Shown here: piece by piece, positions 10,980 through 23,757 of the stretch | Numbering within the stretch: the first letter of the stretch is position 1 | How the letters are laid out: every line of letters starts with the position of its first letter | Origin: Escherichia phage MN04 | Strand: one strand, 5' to 3' | Sequence record: MT129654.1 | DNA length: 64,000 bases | Notes under the pieces: model-generated | Databases searched by the model: none | Seen by the model: the letters and a program-made list of their open reading frames with translations, nothing else | What the model was told of the DNA's origin: nothing | Position numbers and translations under genes: made by a program

Positions 10980-11309
10980 ATGAACAAGCTGAATATTGTT
11001 AATGAACTTCGTCGTTGTGCAGAACCTACTCAAGAAGGTTGGGATATTTGGTACCATGGCGCTTATCTCGGCACTATTGTTAAGATTAAAGCAGGTAAAT
11101 ACTTAATCATCCGTGGTGGTTCTGAAGCTTCTATGGGAATTCGTAAGAACTTTATGGCAGCCATCAGCACCTTTGTTCCAGCTGCTTATGAAGTCTATAA
11201 AGCCGACTACAAAGAATACCAGGAATCACAACCGGTTATTCGTTCAATTGGTGTTAATAAAGCTCAACAGAAAACTTTATGGCAACGTGTTAAAGGATGG
11301 TTCAAATGA
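10980..11309 (+). CDS. hypothetical protein (109 aa)
   Basis: ATG after GAGGAAA SD. Confidence 0.4.
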   Translation: MNKLNIVNELRRCAEPTQEGWDIWYHGAYLGTIVKIKAGKYLIIRGGSEASMGIRKNFMAAISTFVPAAYEVYKADYKEYQESQPVIRSIGVNKAQQKTLWQRVKGWFK

Positions 11310-11644
11310 TTCCGATGGAACTTAACTGGGACGGCGAAGGTCATTCCCTTAAATTGATTGAAGAACAGCGTAATGATTGGGACGAGCGTGTAGCTTTAGT
11401 AAACGGTATTAAGAAAATTTACCAACTCAACCTTCATATTGACAATGTTCATCTTGAATTTGGTATGCAGTTATTGCGGTTTCTTGAGATTATTTTTATA
11501 GAAAAGGTAAACATAACTTCGCATGGTGCTGGCCAATCGGTTGTTATTAAATTATCATCCTATTATAAAGGTGATTTAATTGAAACAGCCACCAAAATTC
11601 AAGAATTTGCTAAAGATAACGGCCATAAGGTGATTTTCAAATGA
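11306..11644 (+). CDS. hypothetical protein (112 aa)
   Basis: ATGA overlap with upstream stop (translational coupling). Confidence 0.35.
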
Positions 11645-12129
11645 ATCCATTAAAAGGTAAAGAATTATCCTTTAAAGACCGTATGGCTTTATTAGATAAA
11701 GCTCTTTCTCGTGAAACACCTGAAAGCTTAGCAGCTAAATTACGAGCCTATGGTGATTACACTGAATATTCGGAAGAGGATGTTTTGGAAGAGGTTCCTG
11801 AAATCTGTTGGCAGATTGCTCATTGGAACAACAATGAAAAATATCAGCGACGAATTGTGTGTGCAGCCAATCGCTTTAAGTTAAAAGACGGCGGGACTTT
11901 GGTTATTCCTGGCGCGCGTCATTATTCAAAAGATATGGCGGAAGTGCTTGACCAAGTAAGTGATAAACTTGTGTCAGAGCATGTTTGCGGTGATGACCAA
12001 GGATTTATCGACCAATACTCAAATTATTGGACTCGCGAAGAAGCAATGATTATTGCAACATATGCTAATCAAGTTCGTATTGAACGTGGTGGTAGTGAAA
12101 AAGAACTTTACTCTGAGGACCTTTACTAA
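11641..12129 (+). CDS. hypothetical protein (162 aa)
   Basis: ATGA overlap with upstream stop. Confidence 0.4.
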
Positions 12130-12410
12130 TGAATCTTAAACAACTCCAGATTGATGCAATCGAAGCCCATATCAACCATATTAAACGTCTGAATGTTATG
12201 GTGGAAGATAATTGGGGAACTTATGTCAACCAACCGGCTTGGGATGCATTAGATCATGAATATATAAAGAATATTAGTTCTAAGACAATTCATGGGAATA
12301 TGGAAGGGTTGAAGCCGTTCCTACGTGATATGTATATTGCAACTAATAAAGAAATTATCAGTTCTCTTGAATATCAATTAAGGAAATTACGTGAACAATC
12401 TTGTAGCTAA
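12129..12410 (+). CDS. hypothetical protein (93 aa); in the region where T4 encodes Arn, not verified
   Basis: TAATG overlap with upstream stop; positional inference only. Confidence 0.35.
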   Translation: MNLKQLQIDAIEAHINHIKRLNVMVEDNWGTYVNQPAWDALDHEYIKNISSKTIHGNMEGLKPFLRDMYIATNKEIISSLEYQLRKLREQSCS

Positions 12411-12499
12411 GCACGATTTCAATAAGGCTTCGGTCCATAAGGACAAGAAGAAAAATTTTAAAGAGTCCAAGCGTAAGCAGAAACATAAGGGTAAAGGGT

Positions 12500-12658
12500 A
12501 TGAGTCATAACTTAGAGAATACCGTAACAGGTATGCGTACGCGTGAGCAGGAGTGCTTTGAGGAATTCCTAGGAGCTGATTTTAAGTTCCAGGAACCTAT
12601 TGAAGAAATGTATCAGGAATATGTTAAAAAGAACGAAGAACATGTTTACAATCCATAA
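12500..12658 (+). CDS. hypothetical small protein (52 aa)
   Basis: ATG with AAGGG SD; below track cutoff. Confidence 0.25.
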   Translation: MSHNLENTVTGMRTREQECFEEFLGADFKFQEPIEEMYQEYVKKNEEHVYNP

Positions 12659-12672
12659 GGATATGTTATTAT
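12644..12672 (+). promoter_or_regulatory. early promoter of asiA
   Basis: GTTTAC, 17 nt, TATTAT. Confidence 0.5.
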
Positions 12673-12713: not shown

Positions 12714-12989
12714 ATGACTAAAATTGAAATCGTTTCCGAAATTGCTACTATTGTTTCCATTTTGATTAAAACGGATTGTGAAGACATCATGCAACGCCGT
12801 GATGAGTTTATTGCCTTTTTGAATGAGTTGGGTATTCGTAATGAACATGGAAAGGAACTTAACGGTCTATCTTTTAATAAACTCTTTAAGTCTTTAACTG
12901 AAGATGAACGTGATACTCTTATTGAGCAATTTAATGAAGGGTATGAAGATATACACCGTTATCTAATGATGTATACCTCCAATTTTTAA
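12714..12989 (+). CDS. asiA: anti-sigma70 factor AsiA
   Basis: 91 aa; IVSEIATIVSILIK...FIAFLNELGI...LIEQFNEGYEDIHRYLMMYT closely resembles T4 AsiA. Confidence 0.85.
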   Translation: MTKIEIVSEIATIVSILIKTDCEDIMQRRDEFIAFLNELGIRNEHGKELNGLSFNKLFKSLTEDERDTLIEQFNEGYEDIHRYLMMYTSNF

Positions 12990-13639
12990 CGAGTTCGACC
13001 TAATGTCCTCCCGGCCTGACCACACATAGACGAAAGTCTAGGAAATCCTAAATCCGGTTTGATGTCATACCAGTATAATGATATCGAACCGGCATAGATG
13101 TTATCCAAATTAAAAAACGGACATGAAAACATATACGTGAAATGGGTTTTCTTCTTTGTAGGAAGGAACACAGTTTCTGTACTTGATTCAAAATAATTCC
13201 CGTTAACTCCCGCCATATACTCCACTGACGTTTTGTCAATCGGAAATCCTCCCGTATTTTTTGCGTCTACCGTTTCCGGTAATTTACCCTCATAAGCAAC
13301 CATGTCCACAAAATAATTCATGTTGGTTGGTCTAAAAGAATATATTGCTGTGAAGTCTGCGCCTGAAGAAGAATGCACTATTCGGAGCTGCTCGATAGCC
13401 GCAATTTTAAATCTATTGTCCTGGTCTTGTCTAATCATTTCAGTATAAGAGGCATAAGTTGTCTCTTTATAAAAGTTTAGAATATATTCGCCTTTATACC
13501 AAACCAGTGCCATAAAGAACAATAATATTACGACTAGGACCCGGGAAAAAACTACTTTCCCGGAAGAAGTATCTTTAAAAATTCTATCAAGAAGTCCAAA
13601 AAGTAGGTCTGATAATGAAAATCCTACTTTTGGTTCCAT
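12986..13639 (-). CDS. t: holin T
   Basis: 217 aa; N-terminal TM region plus large C-terminal domain; FVDMVAYEGKLP and CPFFNLDNIYAGSISLYWY resemble T4 holin; late promoter upstream. Confidence 0.9.
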   Translation of the reverse strand: MEPKVGFSLSDLLFGLLDRIFKDTSSGKVVFSRVLVVILLFFMALVWYKGEYILNFYKETTYASYTEMIRQDQDNRFKIAAIEQLRIVHSSSGADFTAIYSFRPTNMNYFVDMVAYEGKLPETVDAKNTGGFPIDKTSVEYMAGVNGNYFESSTETVFLPTKKKTHFTYMFSCPFFNLDNIYAGSISLYWYDIKPDLGFPRLSSMCGQAGRTLGRTR

Positions 13640-13657
13640 ACTTTTCTCCTTTAAAGA

Positions 13658-13665
13658 TATTTATA
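13658..13665 (-). promoter_or_regulatory. late promoter (TATAAATA) for holin t
   Basis: Reverse complement reads TATAAATA about 20 nt upstream of t start. Confidence 0.55.
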
Positions 13666-13681
13666 ATTTAATACTTTCGTA

Positions 13682-14455
13682 TTATAACCAAGAGCCGTAG
13701 ATAGTGCCTGTAGCGCCCCATGATGGGGCGGAACCGAATACTGCTCTACCAGGAGCACCACCACCCGACCTGGATAAGTTTTTACCCCATCCATCTCCGC
13801 CCCAACCTCCAGCATCACCGCCATTGCCTCCGCCGAATTGGGAAGTGTAACCGGCGCCACCTGGACCATCATAACTAGCATTGCCACCTGGCCAATTAAC
13901 ACCACCGCCGCCGAGACCAAATGGTCTGCCGCCACCGCCACCTGCTGTAGAATTTGCAGGCCAACTATTCTGTAATGATACGGCACCGCCGCCACCACCA
14001 CCGGAGGCTATCACACCATAATTCCAAATGCGAAGTCGCCCACCAATATCATTTTGGATTACGTCACCACCATTAGTGCCTGGGCTTCCATTTACGCTAC
14101 CATTACCACCTCGGCCCCACATATGAACACCACCATGAATATTCAAAGTAACATATTCGTTAGGGGTATCACCGTACATAAAGAACAACGGAACATCTTT
14201 AGTATATGATACTAAGTTGCCTGTGATATTAAACACTATAGGAGCACCGCCGGCTTCAAAACAACGGTCTCTAAACCATTGCCCGTTAAAGTTATGGTCG
14301 GCCCCAAGCGTGTGAATTACTTCAACAGATCGACCTATCATATTACTCATCCAAAAAGGAACACCCATTCTTAATCTTACGGCTGCTCCTGCCATCCAAG
14401 GGTCTCCAGTTTGTACCCTTGCAGACCATCCTACCCACGGTCCTTCAACTGCCAT
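13682..14455 (-). CDS. 38: gp38 receptor-recognising adhesin (T2-type, glycine-rich)
   Basis: Conserved [22 protein letters not shown] block followed by poly-Gly motifs; start set to ATG after GGAGG (track start is TTG); downstream of gene 37. Confidence 0.8.
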
Positions 14456-14486
14456 ATAAACCTCCAAGGGGCCTAAGCCCCTCTTA

Positions 14487-17400
14487 TTATTTTAACAATG
14501 ATTTAACTAAAGCTTTAAGTTCTTCAATCTCTGATTTCAATTCTGTTATTTCGGCAGTATGCTCATTGATTGCAGCTGTATTTAAACCAATTACACCGTT
14601 ATAGTTCAAACGAAGTAAAGCTTCACTATTAGGGTCACCTTCAACCAATTCAGGTAAAATAGCTTGAACTTCTTGGGCAATTAAACCAGCATTAGGTTCC
14701 CATTTCTGATTACCTTCCTCATCTAGGCCTCGCTTCTGCATATAAGTGTAACCGTTAATTTTAGAAAGCTTCTGAGAAGCATTTTCAAATTTAACAAGGT
14801 CTTTTTTAACGCGAATATCAGAACGAACATAAACATCACGGACATATGTAGAATAGGCATCACTTTGTTGGATTAAATGACCAAAAGAAATAATAGCCCT
14901 TCCTGTTTCGGTCCACAAAGCACCGGTGGTATCCCAAAGACCTTGATGGATATGGTAAGAGCTAGACCAAGATGCAATATGCATACCATTGGCAACCATA
15001 TTGATTCGGCCATCACCGCCGTGTGATAATCCTGTGTCATTATCACCAATAGCAATACTAGGAGAGCCTAATCCGTTAACAGTTCCAACACCAATGGCAG
15101 GAGTCTGGACTAAAGTCGGGGCGTAAAATAAACCGCTAGAGTGGAATTCGAAAATACCTACAGGACCGTCGCCACGCTCGGCATTACCTACTCGAATTAT
15201 CGCTTGTCCCCATGCTTGTGGAGTACGACGCATGCCTAATTCAACAGAAGTAGTATAACCCTGACCACTAATTACAGATCGGCCTTTAATAATGGGATAA
15301 TAACTGTCTTCACCCACACTACCAAACTCAAGGAAATAAGGTGCTTCTAAGCCCCATTGGTCACCCCATGCACCAGATTTATGTGCAATCCAGTTGGAAC
15401 CGTTCATATAAATACGGTCTCGGTTTACATTGAATACTGAAGCACCTTGTGGAGATAAAACAACCTCACCATTATGGGTGATATTAATACCACCTTGGGA
15501 TTGGAAGCTCCAGAAGGCTAAACCGTTATCAGCACCACCATTACCTACATACCAGTTATCAACACCACCTTTTTTACCCTTAACATAACCAGCTTCATCT
15601 GCCGGATAATCAATAACAATAGCGTCTGAATTGGTTTTAAGAGTTAAGCGGCCTGTCATTGTGTCCCCGCCTTTACCAACACGAGTATTCACCGCTGCGT
15701 CAAGGTTAGTAGCACCGCTATACTTGTTCCAAATAGAACCTGCAATATTACCATCAGTATTCATGAAAGCTGTACCGGCATATAAGCGGTTCTGAGCCAT
15801 GAAGTTACCTTCTTTGGTAAAGCGCCAATATTTTAATCCTGTAGCATCACCATCACCAAGCAAATCACCTTGAGCAACAATTCGATATTCACTTGTAGCT
15901 CGGTCCATACCTTGAGTAACAGTTACGTTCGAATCAATATTTTTCTGCTTAGTAATAGGGTAAAATGCTTGAGTTGCAGCATCGAGCGTTTGATATACCA
16001 GAGCTTTAGTCGTGTTCTGGTTGGCATAAGATGCACCGTTACTATTAGGGAATTCTAATGCACCATTACCCCTAAAATAAACCTGGTCTGCTTCTAAGTT
16101 AGGGATTTTAACCCGACCGGTGTCTAACATAATACTTAATGGGCGTAATGGACCCAATCCGCCACTTTCACCAGCATTAACATTGGTTGGGATAATATGT
16201 AGCTGGTCTTCTGAATTTCGAAAAATAACACCATACTTATCATTCCAAATACGAAGACCACTAGCAGCGCGGACTTTAATTTCATTGGAAACATATAGAT
16301 TGCGTTTTAAAGATGTATCTTGACTGACAGACAATCCTTCGACGATGTTCATCGTGCCGTTTAAATAAGATTCGACTTTACCTGCCGTATTTCGTTGAAT
16401 ATAGTGCATCCAGCCGGTAGCATCAGATGTTTCCAATACGTTTTTACGAGAACCACCTACCGTATTAAAAGTGTCACCCCAACCTTTGAGCTCTATATTA
16501 TCAACTGAACTATATCCTGAGGTACTTCCTTTAAAAAGCACAGTGGAAGCGTTACCACGACCGTCAATATTAACCGAACCACCACGGACTTCAACGTTAC
16601 CAGGAGTAACCAACAACCCACCATCAGTGTTAACGTTTGTTACACCTTTACCACGGAAATAATGGTGGTATTTACCACTCTGATGATAACCTAAAAGAGT
16701 CTGCCCATCACCAAAGCCGTTTTTATCATTAGTAGTATTAACAATAACTAATGGATAGTTTTGAGCTGTAGGAAGAATTAAATCAGAACCGTTGGTTGAA
16801 TAACCCGCAACTAACTGTTTAAGGCTTGTAACTTCAGTCGGAGTTGTAAGTAAAGTATAAGCTCCATTATTAACTGTATGGAACTGGCCGTCTTGTTTCC
16901 ATTTCAAACCTGTGTTATTGTCACCAAGAGCAATTGAAGCCGTCCCTAATTCAGAATATCCTTTAGGGCCACCTGGAAGACCTACAGAAATAGAATGACC
17001 GGCTTTCAATCCACCTGCCCAGTTAAACGACAAAATATAAGTGTCTAAGCCATCTCCGGAATACCAGGCTATTCCGTCATTAACATTAACTTCGTGGAAA
17101 ATACCTGCTCCTACAGCATTTCGCATAACACGGAGGTGGTTAATAGCCGTTTCGCTTTCTGCCAATGGAGTGTTATTTGATAATGAAGATATATCGTAAT
17201 CGCCGGCGGCTTTACCGTCGGTAATAACTTTATTAGTATAAATTATTGGAGATTTTACCGATGTTCCACCAGAAATAGATGGAGCATAAAATAAACCGTC
17301 ACCGTTGAATGCAAAAATATTAGATGTTGAATTAGTGTAATCCTGAACACGAACATTTAAGATTTGCTTGGTATCCCCAGCACGGTTTTGAGAATAAATT

Positions 17401-17801
17401 ATGCCTCTTTCACGCGCATCAGCCAAATCCTGGAATCGAACGTGGGTAGTTCCTGCACCCCGTACAAGAACTTCACCGTTATCTGTCATTAGGCGAGATT
17501 TTGCTGTGATATCACCATTTGCTGTTATACTTCCGGATGTCGTATAACTACCTGTTTGGGTAAAAGCACCCTTCAGGGCATAATCGCCGGTCTGGTTGTA
17601 GTTACCGTTATGAATAACGTTTCCGTCGATATTACCACCTTTAGCAAAGCCAAGGTCGATAATCGCTCCAGTGTCATCTTTGGTAAATAACAAACGGTCT
17701 TTTAAGTTAATAGCCAGCTCGCCTTCAGCCAACTGCGCTGGCGTAGGACGTACACCAGCTACTTTACTTCTTTTAAATTGTATCTGTTTTAAAGTAGCCA
17801 T
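14487..17801 (-). CDS. 37: long tail fibre distal subunit gp37 with C-terminal intramolecular-chaperone-like domain
   Basis: 1104 aa; synteny 34-35-36-37-38; C-terminal SDIRVK...GLIAQEVQ motif. Confidence 0.9.
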
Positions 17802-17809
17802 AATGCCTC

Positions 17810-18457
17810 TTAATAATAACCAAAATCTTGAATAGAATCTTTTTGAACAATCTGGTCAAAGCGAGGAACGTGTCCTGCACCAGAGGCCGGATTCCGTGAA
17901 ATAAAGTTAGGAGCCGCTAGCACTCCATCCATTATTTGCATGTCAGTATTATTTATTTGGACCTGTTTTGCGTTATCTACTAATGACAATCCAACTTGAG
18001 CTTTAGTAGGGGTGTTGCCTGGGCTGAATACGCGGCCTGATTCATCATATACTTGACGGAATAATGAATCACCCATTACGGTAAGACGTTTAGCCCCAAC
18101 TGTTGTATTTGGGTCAAATATCATAAACGGAGTACCATCTTCCGTTTCATATCCAAAAGCACCTTTAATACGGAAAGAAGCTGTGAACGGAGCCCCGCCG
18201 GTTCTTGCTCCTAATTTAATACCATATCCATTAGTATCATTAAAGGTCAAACCTTTTTCAAAATACACGTTGTTCTTATAATTACCGCCGTTAGCTTTTG
18301 AAACGAAATCGTTATCAACTGCTTGAGGTTTATTATACTCGGTGTAAACTTTATATGTTTTGTAAAGAAGGTCATTTGATACAGGCGTTAAGGGGAAATT
18401 ACCTTGGTGCCATAATACCGAACCTCCTGCTGTAGAACCTAATTTTAAATCTGCCAT
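17810..18457 (-). CDS. 36: long tail fibre hinge protein gp36
   Basis: 215 aa, size and position as T4 gp36. Confidence 0.8.
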   Translation of the reverse strand: MADLKLGSTAGGSVLWHQGNFPLTPVSNDLLYKTYKVYTEYNKPQAVDNDFVSKANGGNYKNNVYFEKGLTFNDTNGYGIKLGARTGGAPFTASFRIKGAFGYETEDGTPFMIFDPNTTVGAKRLTVMGDSLFRQVYDESGRVFSPGNTPTKAQVGLSLVDNAKQVQINNTDMQIMDGVLAAPNFISRNPASGAGHVPRFDQIVQKDSIQDFGYY

Positions 18458-18513
18458 TTTGAGTTTCCTTTGGGAGTTATAGCCTTTTATATATATTTAT
18501 GGCTGTAGAAAAC

Positions 18514-18537
18514 GAAAAAAAGGAACCCGAAGGTTCC
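18514..18537 (-). terminator. rho-independent terminator after gene 35
   Basis: GGAACC-TTCG-GGTTCC hairpin; T-run on minus strand. Confidence 0.55.
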
Positions 18538-19659
18538 TTAATATTTTTCTCTAAATTCAGCGACCCAAACCTGACCAGGTTTAGTGCCTGTTTTATCATA
18601 TAGCTGGGCTATGGTAGTACCCATATTTTTAGTTTCCGTACCAAAGTTCATACGAATACCGTTAACACCAAATTCAGCAGGTTTTGGCTGAGGTTCTGAT
18701 TCAGATATCTCACCGAACATAACATTTCGAACTCCGCCTTGGCCAGCCGAAGCTGTTTTTCTGGCATAAAGGGTAAAGTCTGTAGTACCTTCAGGAACCA
18801 TTACTACCCGTTCAAACGTCATCCATGCACCAGCAGGAACGTTGGAAGGAACGTCCATATTAACTGTCCCAGTTAAAGCACCTGAAGCATTAAAAAATCT
18901 AACAGACATCTGAGAAGTCCCGACGTCTTTTAAAGCCTGGTCGCACATCATTTGAAACTTAAGGTAAAAGAATTCACCTGGTTTCATATTATAATCTGTT
19001 AATGGGGTAGTAGGAGATTCGGTGGGAAATCGCTTAATTTCATCTCCCTCATTGCTTAGATAAGTGCTTTCGTCTTCAACAATTCTGACAGGATATCCTG
19101 TACCACCGACGTCGCTGATATCATCAAATACCACTTCTAATGGAGTAGAAACATCTTCGACAAGCACCCCATCATTATAAAGCACATGTTCCATTACTAT
19201 AGCATTCCTTCCCGAAACATAAAATGCTGAATAAGACGGCTCGAAGCGGTCTATTAGCCATTTAGATGGAAATGCGGTACTTCCTGCTGCATGGAACCAA
19301 TCGATAAGTTTTTGTGAAGCATTTAATCTACCGGAAGATACTAAACAAACTATTCTATTGGCTGGTATAGAATTTATATACGTTATAAAAGCTTCAGAAA
19401 TAACATCAAAATCTTTTGTAAAACTATAAGTTTTGTTAGCCACTATTTTGGGTTCAGCACTAACATCGATTTCTATAAGGTTTAATCCATTTTGAAAATT
19501 TTGGGAACCGAAGTTCCCATCTTGAAATTTAACATATGCCTTTGTGGTAGACTTAGTACAACTACCCGCTATACTAAGTTTATACCTTACGGCATTGTTT
19601 TCAGATAATGTAGGAACCTGGACATATCCTTGTCCAAATTCTGCCATAAATCTTTCCAT
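18538..19659 (-). CDS. 35: long tail fibre hinge connector gp35
   Basis: 373 aa (T4 gp35 is about 372 aa); position. Confidence 0.8.
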   Translation of the reverse strand: MERFMAEFGQGYVQVPTLSENNAVRYKLSIAGSCTKSTTKAYVKFQDGNFGSQNFQNGLNLIEIDVSAEPKIVANKTYSFTKDFDVISEAFITYINSIPANRIVCLVSSGRLNASQKLIDWFHAAGSTAFPSKWLIDRFEPSYSAFYVSGRNAIVMEHVLYNDGVLVEDVSTPLEVVFDDISDVGGTGYPVRIVEDESTYLSNEGDEIKRFPTESPTTPLTDYNMKPGEFFYLKFQMMCDQALKDVGTSQMSVRFFNASGALTGTVNMDVPSNVPAGAWMTFERVVMVPEGTTDFTLYARKTASAGQGGVRNVMFGEISESEPQPKPAEFGVNGIRMNFGTETKNMGTTIAQLYDKTGTKPGQVWVAEFREKY

Positions 19660-23749: not shown

Positions 23750-23757
23750 TATTTATA
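23750..23757 (-). promoter_or_regulatory. late promoter (TATAAATA) for gene 34
   Basis: Reverse complement reads TATAAATA about 35 nt upstream of gene 34 start. Confidence 0.6.

Follow-up and report, generated by a model that had tools for sequence, protein, structure and literature searches.

The phage MN04 is a Dhakavirus, a T-even phage of the JS10/JS98 type, and the window analysed here (the whole stretch of 64,000 nucleotides) carries genes on its minus strand in the order 36-37-38-t, the same as in JS10, EcWhh-1, RB69, T2, T6, PP01 and S16. Gene 38 lies between gene 37 (upstream) and the holin gene t (downstream). The tail-fibre genes are the following:

17810–18457, minus strand: gene 36, distal hinge connector, first of the 36-37-38 group (PHROG 1425, E = 1.7e-56; JS10 and EcWhh-1 have an annotated gp36 at this place)
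14487–17801, minus strand: gene 37, long-tail-fibre distal subunit, a precursor of 1104 aa and 118.7 kDa (PHROG 1699 and Pfam matches)
13682–14455, minus strand: gene 38, predicted T2-type long-tail-fibre tip adhesin, 257 aa and 26.1 kDa, stop codon 13682–13684 (Pfam, PHROG and PDB matches)

The 36-37-38 tip module is of an already known and well-studied type; it is textbook biology, near-identical to that of published phages, and the mechanism of such fibre tips is already well described (PMC3157838, PMC6851490, PMC7917993). Matches in 850 phage records, together with those to solved structures (up to E = 6e-74), settle the family membership of the proteins; the conservation of catalytic and docking residues, the gene order, and the likeness to receptor-typed adhesins were also established from the sequence. 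Scans of the entire window for tRNAs and Rfam families gave no matches. Three open reading frames in alternative frames (13651–14001, minus strand; 13720–13878 and 14054–14209, plus strand) were discarded as by-products of sequence rich in glycine codons. This richness also accounts for the rise in GC content to 0.48–0.51, and the DNA repeats of gene 38 are only short (12–23 nt), reflecting glycine codons, with no true repeat array.

An earlier note, made from the letters alone, had proposed that gp38 is a T2-type adhesin rather than a T4-type assembly chaperone, and the database searches agreed with this proposal. Residues 45–257 matched positions 1–218 of 218 of the Pfam profile GP38 (PF05268; E = 1.7e-81, 273.7 bits), and residues 1–40 matched positions 1–40 of 40 of Gp38_N (PF21721; 3e-19, 69.2 bits). 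The Pfam gathering cut-offs, 25 bits for each of these profiles and 22 bits for Peptidase_S74 (see below), were exceeded in all three cases, and the matches lie well outside what chance would give. A match to PHROG 2056 ('tail fiber protein; host specificity') was obtained with E = 1.9e-105, and the solved adhesins of PP01 (PDB 9v85, 6e-74) and S16 (6f45_D, 2e-48) were matched over the full length of gp38. If the system were instead of the T4 type, gp38 would serve as an assembly chaperone only and be absent from the virion, and the C-terminus of gp37 itself would bind the receptor. This reading is extremely improbable: the full-length match to solved adhesins argues against it, as do the BLASTP comparison of MN04 gp38 with T4 gp38, which found nothing (E > 1), and the lack of a GP38 or Gp38_N match in T4 gp38, and only database labels point towards it ('distal long tail fiber assembly catalyst' in the records of EcWhh-1, JS10 (GenBank) and IME281). 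These results support the idea that gp38 is a T2-type adhesin, unlike the T4-type chaperone.

The start of gene 38 was assigned to the ATG at 14455, which lies five bases past a GGAGG (14461–14465) and is the annotated start in JS10 and EcWhh-1; Gp38_N aligns from residue 1 of the resulting protein. The TTG at 14467, where the mechanical open reading frame begins, was rejected, as it falls inside an intergenic hairpin beside the Shine-Dalgarno sequence and all homologues begin at the ATG. Two noncoding elements were recognised in the region:

14461–14483, minus strand: 37-38 intergenic element, with the hairpin GAGGGGC-UUAG-GCCCCUU (14466–14483) and then the Shine-Dalgarno sequence GGAGG (14461–14465) for gene 38
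18494–18539, minus strand: g35-g36 gap, with a terminator-like hairpin that has a UUCG loop and a T-run (18520–18539; terminator scan), and then CATAAATA (18494–18501)

The 37-38 hairpin has a fold energy of −13.2 kcal/mol, and a hairpin is present at the equivalent position in 10 of the 10 comparators, with stem sequences that differ. A role as an intrinsic terminator was discarded, given that no T-run follows the hairpin on the coding strand and that the terminator scan flagged it on the opposite strand only. In the g35-g36 gap, the sequence CATAAATA shows one mismatch relative to the T4 late-promoter consensus TATAAATA, and it may function as a promoter.

Within gp38, three parts were distinguished:

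14324–14455, minus strand: N-terminal attachment domain, residues 1–44, with W7, W20 and W35 (Gp38_N covers residues 1–40)
14249–14314, minus strand: conserved 22-residue block, residues 48–69, opening the stretch that the JS10, RB69, PP01 and T6 adhesins have in common
13685–14119, minus strand: specificity domain, residues 113–257, in which invariant glycine motifs alternate with hypervariable segments (HVS), followed by a 14-residue C-terminal motif

The three tryptophans are invariant in an alignment of 10 adhesins that includes S16; such residues act as prongs that enter pockets of gp37 and dock gp38 on it (PMC6851490). Residues 45–112 are 87–100% identical to those of JS10, RB69, PP01 and T6 and only 35–41% identical to those of T2 and S16. 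The elements that the earlier note had listed for gp38 were all located on the minus strand, that is, the 22-residue block, GGGGGGA at residue 152, GGGGGR at 172 and GGGG at 182. The glycine motifs of the specificity domain are GRGGNG (114–119), G152–G157, GGGGGRPFG (172–180), GNGG (210–213) and GGA (232–234). Among the 10 adhesins, G114–G119, G152–G157, G172–G176 with the following R-P, and G210, G212, G213 and G236 are invariant, and G232 and G233 are nearly so. The glycine content is 25.7% for gp38 as a whole and reaches 35% in residues 110–257. A polyglycine type II sandwich fold may be expected from the homology of gp38 to solved structures. The variation among relatives is concentrated in the HVS that separate the invariant glycine motifs.

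Residues 1–1103 of gp37 matched PHROG 1699, 'long tail fiber distal subunit', with E = 0. Its Pfam matches are Gp34_trimer, gp37_trimer and Peptidase_S74, the last of which was also found by the Pfam scan in the gp37 of T2 and S16. T4 gp37 carries Collar and Phage_fiber instead, and neither of these T4 tip domains is present in MN04 gp37, which further argues against a T4-type arrangement. The relevant parts of the C-terminal region are:

14823–15074, minus strand: gp37 distal tip, residues about 910–993, homologous to the beta-helical tip of S16 gp37 that carries gp38
14490–14822, minus strand: C-terminal intramolecular-chaperone (Peptidase_S74) domain and C-terminal tail, residues 994–1104, 111 aa, 12.4 kDa (Pfam)
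14820–14825, minus strand: predicted scissile bond R993^S994 (DVYVR^SDIRVKK), aligned with the S16 and fPS-2 sites

The earlier note had also held that the last ~110 residues of gp37, with the motifs SDIRVK and GLIAQEVQ, resemble the Ser-Lys intramolecular chaperone of other fibres. The motifs start at residues 994 and 1039, the piece is 111 aa long, and the profile search suggested in that note returned Peptidase_S74 (PF13884), with residues 994–1053 aligned to positions 1–57 of 58 (47.3 bits, E = 2.5e-12). Ser994 (codon 14820–14822) is the exact start of the profile and Lys999 lies five residues on, both within SDIRVK. The domain constitutes the last 111 of the 1104 residues; the matches to Gp34_trimer and gp37_trimer and the tip resembling that of S16 all precede it. 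A phmmer search aligned gp37 residues 910–1104 with residues 22–204 of S16 gp37 (6f45_A; E = 5e-46), with a 12-residue insertion in MN04 gp37. The portion from residue 994 matched 6f45_A with E = 1e-34 and the MYRF domain 7dc3 with E = 0.023, the latter aligning the ADLRAK of the MYRF autoprocessing domain to SDIRVK. The motif S-D-x-R-[VIL]-K was found 99–113 residues from the C-terminus of gp37 in all nine of T2, T6, S16, PP01, RB69, FL31, fPS-2, JS10 and EcWhh-1, and it is absent from T4 gp37.

In S16, gp37 undergoes autocleavage and chaperone release at the serine aligned with S994, and the cleavage sites are DLNVS^SDRRIKK in S16 and DVYIR^SDGRLKI in fPS-2 (PMC7917993); C-terminal cleavage has also been stated for the gp37 of T2 and T6 (PMC3157838). 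By analogy, we predict that gp37 is autoproteolytically processed once the trimer has folded, with a cut at R993/S994 that would free a 111-aa fragment of 12.4 kDa. An alternative that accepts gp38 as the adhesin is that the C-terminal domain of gp37 is retained uncleaved, or cut by some other protease, its likeness to S74 reflecting a folding role only. The moderate Peptidase_S74 E-value would fit this alternative; however, Ser994 and Lys999 stand at the conserved dyad spacing with Ser994 at profile position 1, the domain shares 96–98% of its residues with its PP01 and RB69 counterparts and is clearly homologous to the autocleaving S16 domain, and an uncleaved domain would take up the docking surface of gp38 (PMC7917993). 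We regard retention or foreign cleavage as very unlikely, and self-cleavage at R993/S994 is preferred.

The locus very probably encodes, for a JS10-like Dhakavirus, a distal tip of the long tail fibre that follows the T2/S16 design, with an S74 chaperone end on gp37 and gp38 as the receptor-binding cap, and we found no sequence feature at odds with such a model. From the homologues, on which all the steps below are based, we infer that gp37 is cleaved, that gp38 is a virion protein at a ratio of 1:3 to gp37, and which receptor it binds. In the proposed mechanism, gp37 would first be made as the 1104-aa precursor, whose last 111 residues would act as a Peptidase_S74-type intramolecular chaperone that aids the folding of the preceding trimeric fibre. 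The chaperone would then excise itself at the R993/S994 bond, with Ser994 and Lys999 as its dyad, and this would expose a gp37 tip with ...DVYVR as its last residues, on which one gp38 would sit as a cap. This protein would dock by its N-terminal attachment domain with W7, W20 and W35, and its C-terminal half would form a polyglycine sandwich, with hypervariable loops that attach to the receptor on the host, most likely OmpF.

The view, already put forward in the earlier note, that receptor specificity resides in gp38 was strengthened by the location of the differences among relatives in the HVS between glycine motifs, and by published gp38 swaps and point mutations that change the receptor (PMC3157838; bioRxiv 10.64898/2026.04.02.716166). 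In the alignment with T2/T6-type adhesins, the specificity domain (residues 113–257) of MN04 gp38 is 92–93% identical to those of RB69, FL31, fPS-2 and Bas47 and 47–57% identical to those of PP01, S16, T6 and T2. The receptor is OmpC for PP01 and S16, Tsx for T6 and FadL for T2. The position Q206 is retained in MN04 gp38. OmpF dependence has been reported for RB69 and RB51 (PMC3157838), fPS-2 (PMC7917993) and Bas47 (PMC8594841). The picture for these adhesins is not clear-cut, since the dependence of FL31 is weak, with a plating loss of only about one log on ompF and tolC mutants (PMC12032242), and since FhuA and a complete LPS core were reported as further requirements of RB69 and RB51 (PMC3157838). 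The substitution Q206L turns an RB51-type gp38 from OmpF to OmpW (bioRxiv 10.64898/2026.04.02.716166). Since Q206 is kept and the specificity domain is closely identical to those of OmpF-typed adhesins, the porin OmpF is predicted as the most likely receptor of the MN04 gp38 allele. The earlier note was silent on the receptor and on the 99% identity of gp38 to that of JS10, that is, on the module being already described.

The module could work as described while the JS10-type gp38 uses, for instance, OmpW, OmpC or some further porin instead of OmpF. MN04 gp38 differs from the OmpF-typed adhesins at S120, S124, P166, A167, S169, G197, K225 and N226, all of them in HVS, and these eight residues favour such a shift, as do the effect of Q206L alone on an RB51-type protein and the outcome of the literature searches, which yielded nothing on the receptor of JS10, JS98 or a Dhakavirus with the MN04 gp38 allele. 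On the other hand, the specificity domain is nearly the same as in four OmpF-dependent phages from two other genera, Q206 itself is unchanged, and surveys indicate that closely related gp38 proteins share their receptor (PMC12032242). We consider a non-OmpF receptor unlikely, and OmpF remains the preferred candidate. Given the eight differing HVS positions, there is also a rather slim chance that the JS10-type gp38 recognises another porin, or another loop variant of OmpF, than its RB69, RB51 and Bas47 relatives. Single substitutions in the HVS of gp38 are known to switch receptors.

This analysis corrects the misleading label 'distal long tail fiber assembly catalyst' in closely related records, and its value beyond annotation is small. 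The gains are a fixed start codon for gp38 and a testable R993/S994 cleavage site, and the OmpF prediction could be useful for phage therapy or host-range engineering with this Dhakavirus.

Among known systems, the closest is the Dhakavirus JS10, whose gp38 is 99.2% identical (two substitutions, K225N and A243S) and whose gp37 is 91.4% identical. For EcWhh-1 the values are 96.5% and 94.8%, respectively. The gene order 36-37-38-t, the 37-38 spacer and its hairpin are identical to those of MN04 in both phages. The shaft of gp37 is a mosaic, as residues 51–200 of MN04 are 100% identical to EcWhh-1 and only 50–68% identical to JS10, whereas residues 550–700 are nearer to JS10. The OmpF group, formed by RB69, RB51, FL31 and Bas47 (Mosigvirus) and fPS-2 (Tequatrovirus), has the same glycine motifs and conserves Q206, but belongs to other genera, its attachment domain is only 50–93% identical, and the HVS changes between MN04 and this group are S120T, S124N, P166A, A167P, S169A, G197A, K225N and N226H.

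PP01, which binds OmpC and whose gp38 receptor-binding domain has been solved (PDB 9V85), belongs to the same fold family; its gp37 chaperone domain is 96–98% identical and residues 1–112 of its gp38 are 80–90% identical, but identity is no more than 52% in the specificity domain, and DNA identity drops from 83–94% to 49–58% inside gene 38. The S16 gp37-gp38 tip (PDB 6F45) shares with MN04 the trimeric gp37 tip, the chaperone domain that starts with Ser and then D-x-R-[IV]-K-K, the three docking tryptophans and the glycine-rich motifs of gp38. In contrast, S16 gp38, which binds Salmonella OmpC, is only 46–49% identical overall and 47% identical in the specificity domain, the gp37 tip of MN04 has the 12-residue insertion, and the cut comes after Ser in S16 and, as predicted, after Arg in MN04.

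The endosialidase of phage K1F and MYRF belong to the same Pfam family, with Ser and a Lys five residues on, at the C-terminus of a trimeric fibre; the Ser-Lys mechanism of these Peptidase_S74 intramolecular chaperone domains was reportedly described by Schulz and colleagues in 2010 (cited in PMC7917993). The S74 domain is attached to an enzyme in the endosialidase and to a tail-fibre shaft in MN04, where the site on which the separate adhesin docks is proposed to arise once the domain has been removed. Finally, T4 genes 37 and 38 occupy the same genome position, and gp37 of the two phages shows homology in its N-terminal part and shaft (Gp34_trimer in both), but T4 gp38 is an unrelated chaperone, and T4 gp37 has its own receptor-binding tip and no Peptidase_S74.

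A run of late genes lies on the minus strand of the window, in the order 36-37-38-t:

17810-18457, minus strand: gene 36, distal hinge connector
14487-17801, minus strand: gene 37, distal fibre subunit (1104 aa)
13682-14455, minus strand: gene 38, tip adhesin (257 aa)
12986-13639, minus strand: gene t, holin

The phage belongs to the JS10/JS98-like T-even phages of the genus Dhakavirus (Straboviridae). Its DNA outside the fibre locus is ~95-97% identical to JS10, UP19, and NC-G, and genes 36-38 show 93.5-94.6% DNA identity to JS10 and EcWhh-1; from these identities, it represents a new isolate of a described phage group. Neither tRNA genes nor Rfam families at the gathering threshold were found in the whole 64-kb window (1-64000). 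We also observed that the gene content of the arn region (10980-12660) differs from that of relatives: a 115-aa ORF between arn.4 and arn.3 (11297-11644) is present in JS10 and absent from EcWhh-1, and the window, like EcWhh-1, lacks two small ORFs that JS10 carries between arn.2 and the ORF that precedes asiA.

The earlier note proposed that gp38 is a T2-type tip adhesin and not a T4-type chaperone, and the motifs that it read in gp38 and gp37 were all found where it had placed them; in gp38, these are the 22-residue conserved block (residues 48-69), GGGGGGA (152), GGGGGR (172), and GGGG (182). Profile and structure matches supported this assignment: gp38 matched Pfam GP38 over the full profile (1.7e-81) and Gp38_N (3e-19), PHROG 2056 'tail fiber protein; host specificity' (1.9e-105), the solved PP01 gp38 receptor-binding domain (9v85, 6e-74), and, end to end, the solved S16 gp38 (6f45_D, 2e-48), whereas it showed no similarity to T4 gp38 (best E = 1.1), which itself had no match in the Pfam scan. 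The alignment of ten sequences (window, JS10, EcWhh-1, RB69, FL31, fPS-2, PP01, T2, T6, and S16) revealed invariant tryptophans (W7, W20, W35), glycine blocks (G114-G119, G152-G157, G172-G176 followed by R-P, and G210/G212/G213), and C-terminal residues (P244, W246, G250, I252, G254). In S16 gp38, the three tryptophans are described as prongs inserting into pockets of the gp37 trimer and the glycine motifs as polyglycine type II helices, and the hypervariable loops are the proposed receptor-binding site (PMC6851490). Judged by its sequence, gp38 is a member of the T2-type adhesin family, which is present in 850 phage records (tblastn). In many public records (EcWhh-1; JS10 and IME281 in GenBank; others), gp38 is labelled 'distal long tail fiber assembly catalyst'; this is the function of T4 gp38, and the label is misleading for the T2-type family.

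Glycine makes up 25.7% of gp38 and 35% of residues 110-257. Because of these glycine codons, the local GC content rises to 0.48-0.51 in 13500-14250 (background ~0.37; GC skew strongly negative), and spurious ORFs appear in other frames over gene 38, such as 13651-14001 (minus strand). The start TTG 14467, suggested by the ORF lister, was rejected, as this codon lies inside an intergenic hairpin beside the Shine-Dalgarno sequence. The start is ATG 14455, five bases after GGAGG (14461-14465); JS10 and EcWhh-1 are both annotated with this start, and Gp38_N aligns from residue 1 of the resulting protein.

This hairpin (GAGGGGC-UUAG-GCCCCUU, 14466-14483, minus strand, -13.2 kcal/mol) lies within the 31 nt that separate gene 37 from gene 38, adjoining the gene 38 Shine-Dalgarno sequence on its upstream side. 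A hairpin with a different stem sequence was found at the same position in all ten comparators (JS10, EcWhh-1, RB69, FL31, PP01, fPS-2, T2, T6, S16, and T4). The loop is UUAG in all three Dhakavirus sequences (the window included), and RB69, FL31, PP01, T2, and T4 have UUCG. Since the window hairpin lacks a T-run after it on the coding strand, we rejected it as an intrinsic terminator. Farther upstream, between genes 35 and 36, the gene 35 stop is directly followed by a hairpin resembling a terminator, which has a UUCG loop and a T-run (18520-18539, minus strand). After it, ahead of gene 36, comes CATAAATA (18494-18501, minus strand), one mismatch away from the late-promoter consensus of T4. 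The only perfect TATAAATA boxes precede t (13658-13665) and gene 34 (23750-23757). The roles of these elements as expression signals are those we infer from sequence.

The earlier note also read the C-terminal ~110 aa of gp37 as a self-cleaving chaperone-like domain and proposed a profile search, which supported this reading: residues 994-1053 matched positions 1-57 of the 58 in Pfam Peptidase_S74 (47.3 bits; cut-off 22). SDIRVK lies at 994 (Ser codon 14820-14822) and GLIAQEVQ at 1039. According to the profile alignment, the domain starts at Ser994, with Lys999 five residues on, leaving a C-terminal piece of 111 aa. Peptidase_S74 was also detected in T2 gp37 (3.3e-15) and S16 gp37 (1.4e-11), and the last 195 residues aligned to the S16 gp37 construct 6f45_A (5e-46). 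The last 127 residues weakly matched the human MYRF autoprocessing domain (7dc3, 0.023), with ADLRAK aligned to SDIRVK. All nine T2-type gp37 examined carry the motif S-D-x-R-[VIL]-K at a distance of 99-113 residues from the C-terminus. T4 gp37 lacks it, and its tip has Collar and Phage_fiber domains in place of Peptidase_S74. The T4-type arrangement was rejected, as neither gp38 nor gp37 fits it; the gp37 C-terminus has the features of a Peptidase_S74 chaperone domain. The S16 chaperone is reported to self-cleave at DLNVS^SDRRIKK, exposing the gp38 docking surface (PMC7917993), and gp37 of T2 and T6 is likewise stated to be cleaved C-terminally and then capped by gp38 (PMC3157838). The window gp37 reads DVYVR^SDIRVKK at this position; by analogy with S16, it would be cut between R993 and S994, giving calculated masses of 106.3 kDa (mature protein) and 12.4 kDa (released fragment).

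The DNA encoding the chaperone domain and gp38 (~14852-13808) is 79-93% identical to RB69, a phage of another genus (Mosigvirus), whereas the DNA on either side (gp36, gp37 shaft, and t) reaches only 30-70%. Compared with PP01, the chaperone-domain DNA and the 5' portion of gene 38 show 83-94% identity, which falls to 49-58% in the hypervariable region. The segment 13808-14852 looks like a cassette exchanged between genera. The gp37 shaft is also mosaic: residues 51-200 (17200-17650) are 100% identical to EcWhh-1, against only 50-68% for JS10. Residues ~550-700 (15700-16150) are closer to JS10 (89-100% identical) than to EcWhh-1 (75-89%). T-even phages are described as exchanging the distal fibre locus in modules (PMC3157838, PMC7917993), which agrees with the requirement that the N-terminus of gp38 fit its gp37 tip (PMC12892980).

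Identity of gp38 to the window gp38 at residues 1-44 (attachment) and 113-257 (specificity), with the receptor or receptor dependence reported for each phage.
JS10: 100%; 99%; none found
EcWhh-1: 100%; 94%; none found
RB69: 93%; 92%; OmpF, with FhuA and LPS core also needed, as for RB51 (PMC3157838)
FL31: 80%; 92%; OmpF/TolC, weak (PMC12032242)
fPS-2: 54%; 92%; OmpF plus LPS (PMC7917993)
Bas47: 50%; 93%; OmpF, complemented (PMC8594841)
PP01: 80%; 52%; OmpC (PMC12892980)
T2: 43%; 57%; FadL (PMC8594841)
T6: 52%; 50%; Tsx (PMC12032242)
S16: 52%; 47%; OmpC (PMC6851490)

A single Q206L substitution is reported to turn the RB51-type adhesin from OmpF to OmpW (preprint, bioRxiv 10.64898/2026.04.02.716166), and Q206 is kept in the window gp38. 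From this residue and the specificity-domain identity to the adhesins of OmpF-dependent phages, OmpF is the best prediction for its receptor. Eight residues in the hypervariable segments (S120, S124, P166, A167, S169, G197, K225, N226) differ from the OmpF-typed adhesins, and literature searches gave no receptor data for JS10 or JS98; the JS10-specific substitutions in these segments might alter porin specificity.

Taken together, these results support the idea of a T2-type fibre tip, for which autocleavage of gp37, the location of gp38 in the virion, and OmpF as the receptor are predicted. The module is of low interest because it is already known: two residues separate its gp38 from that of JS10, and its mechanism has been described structurally.
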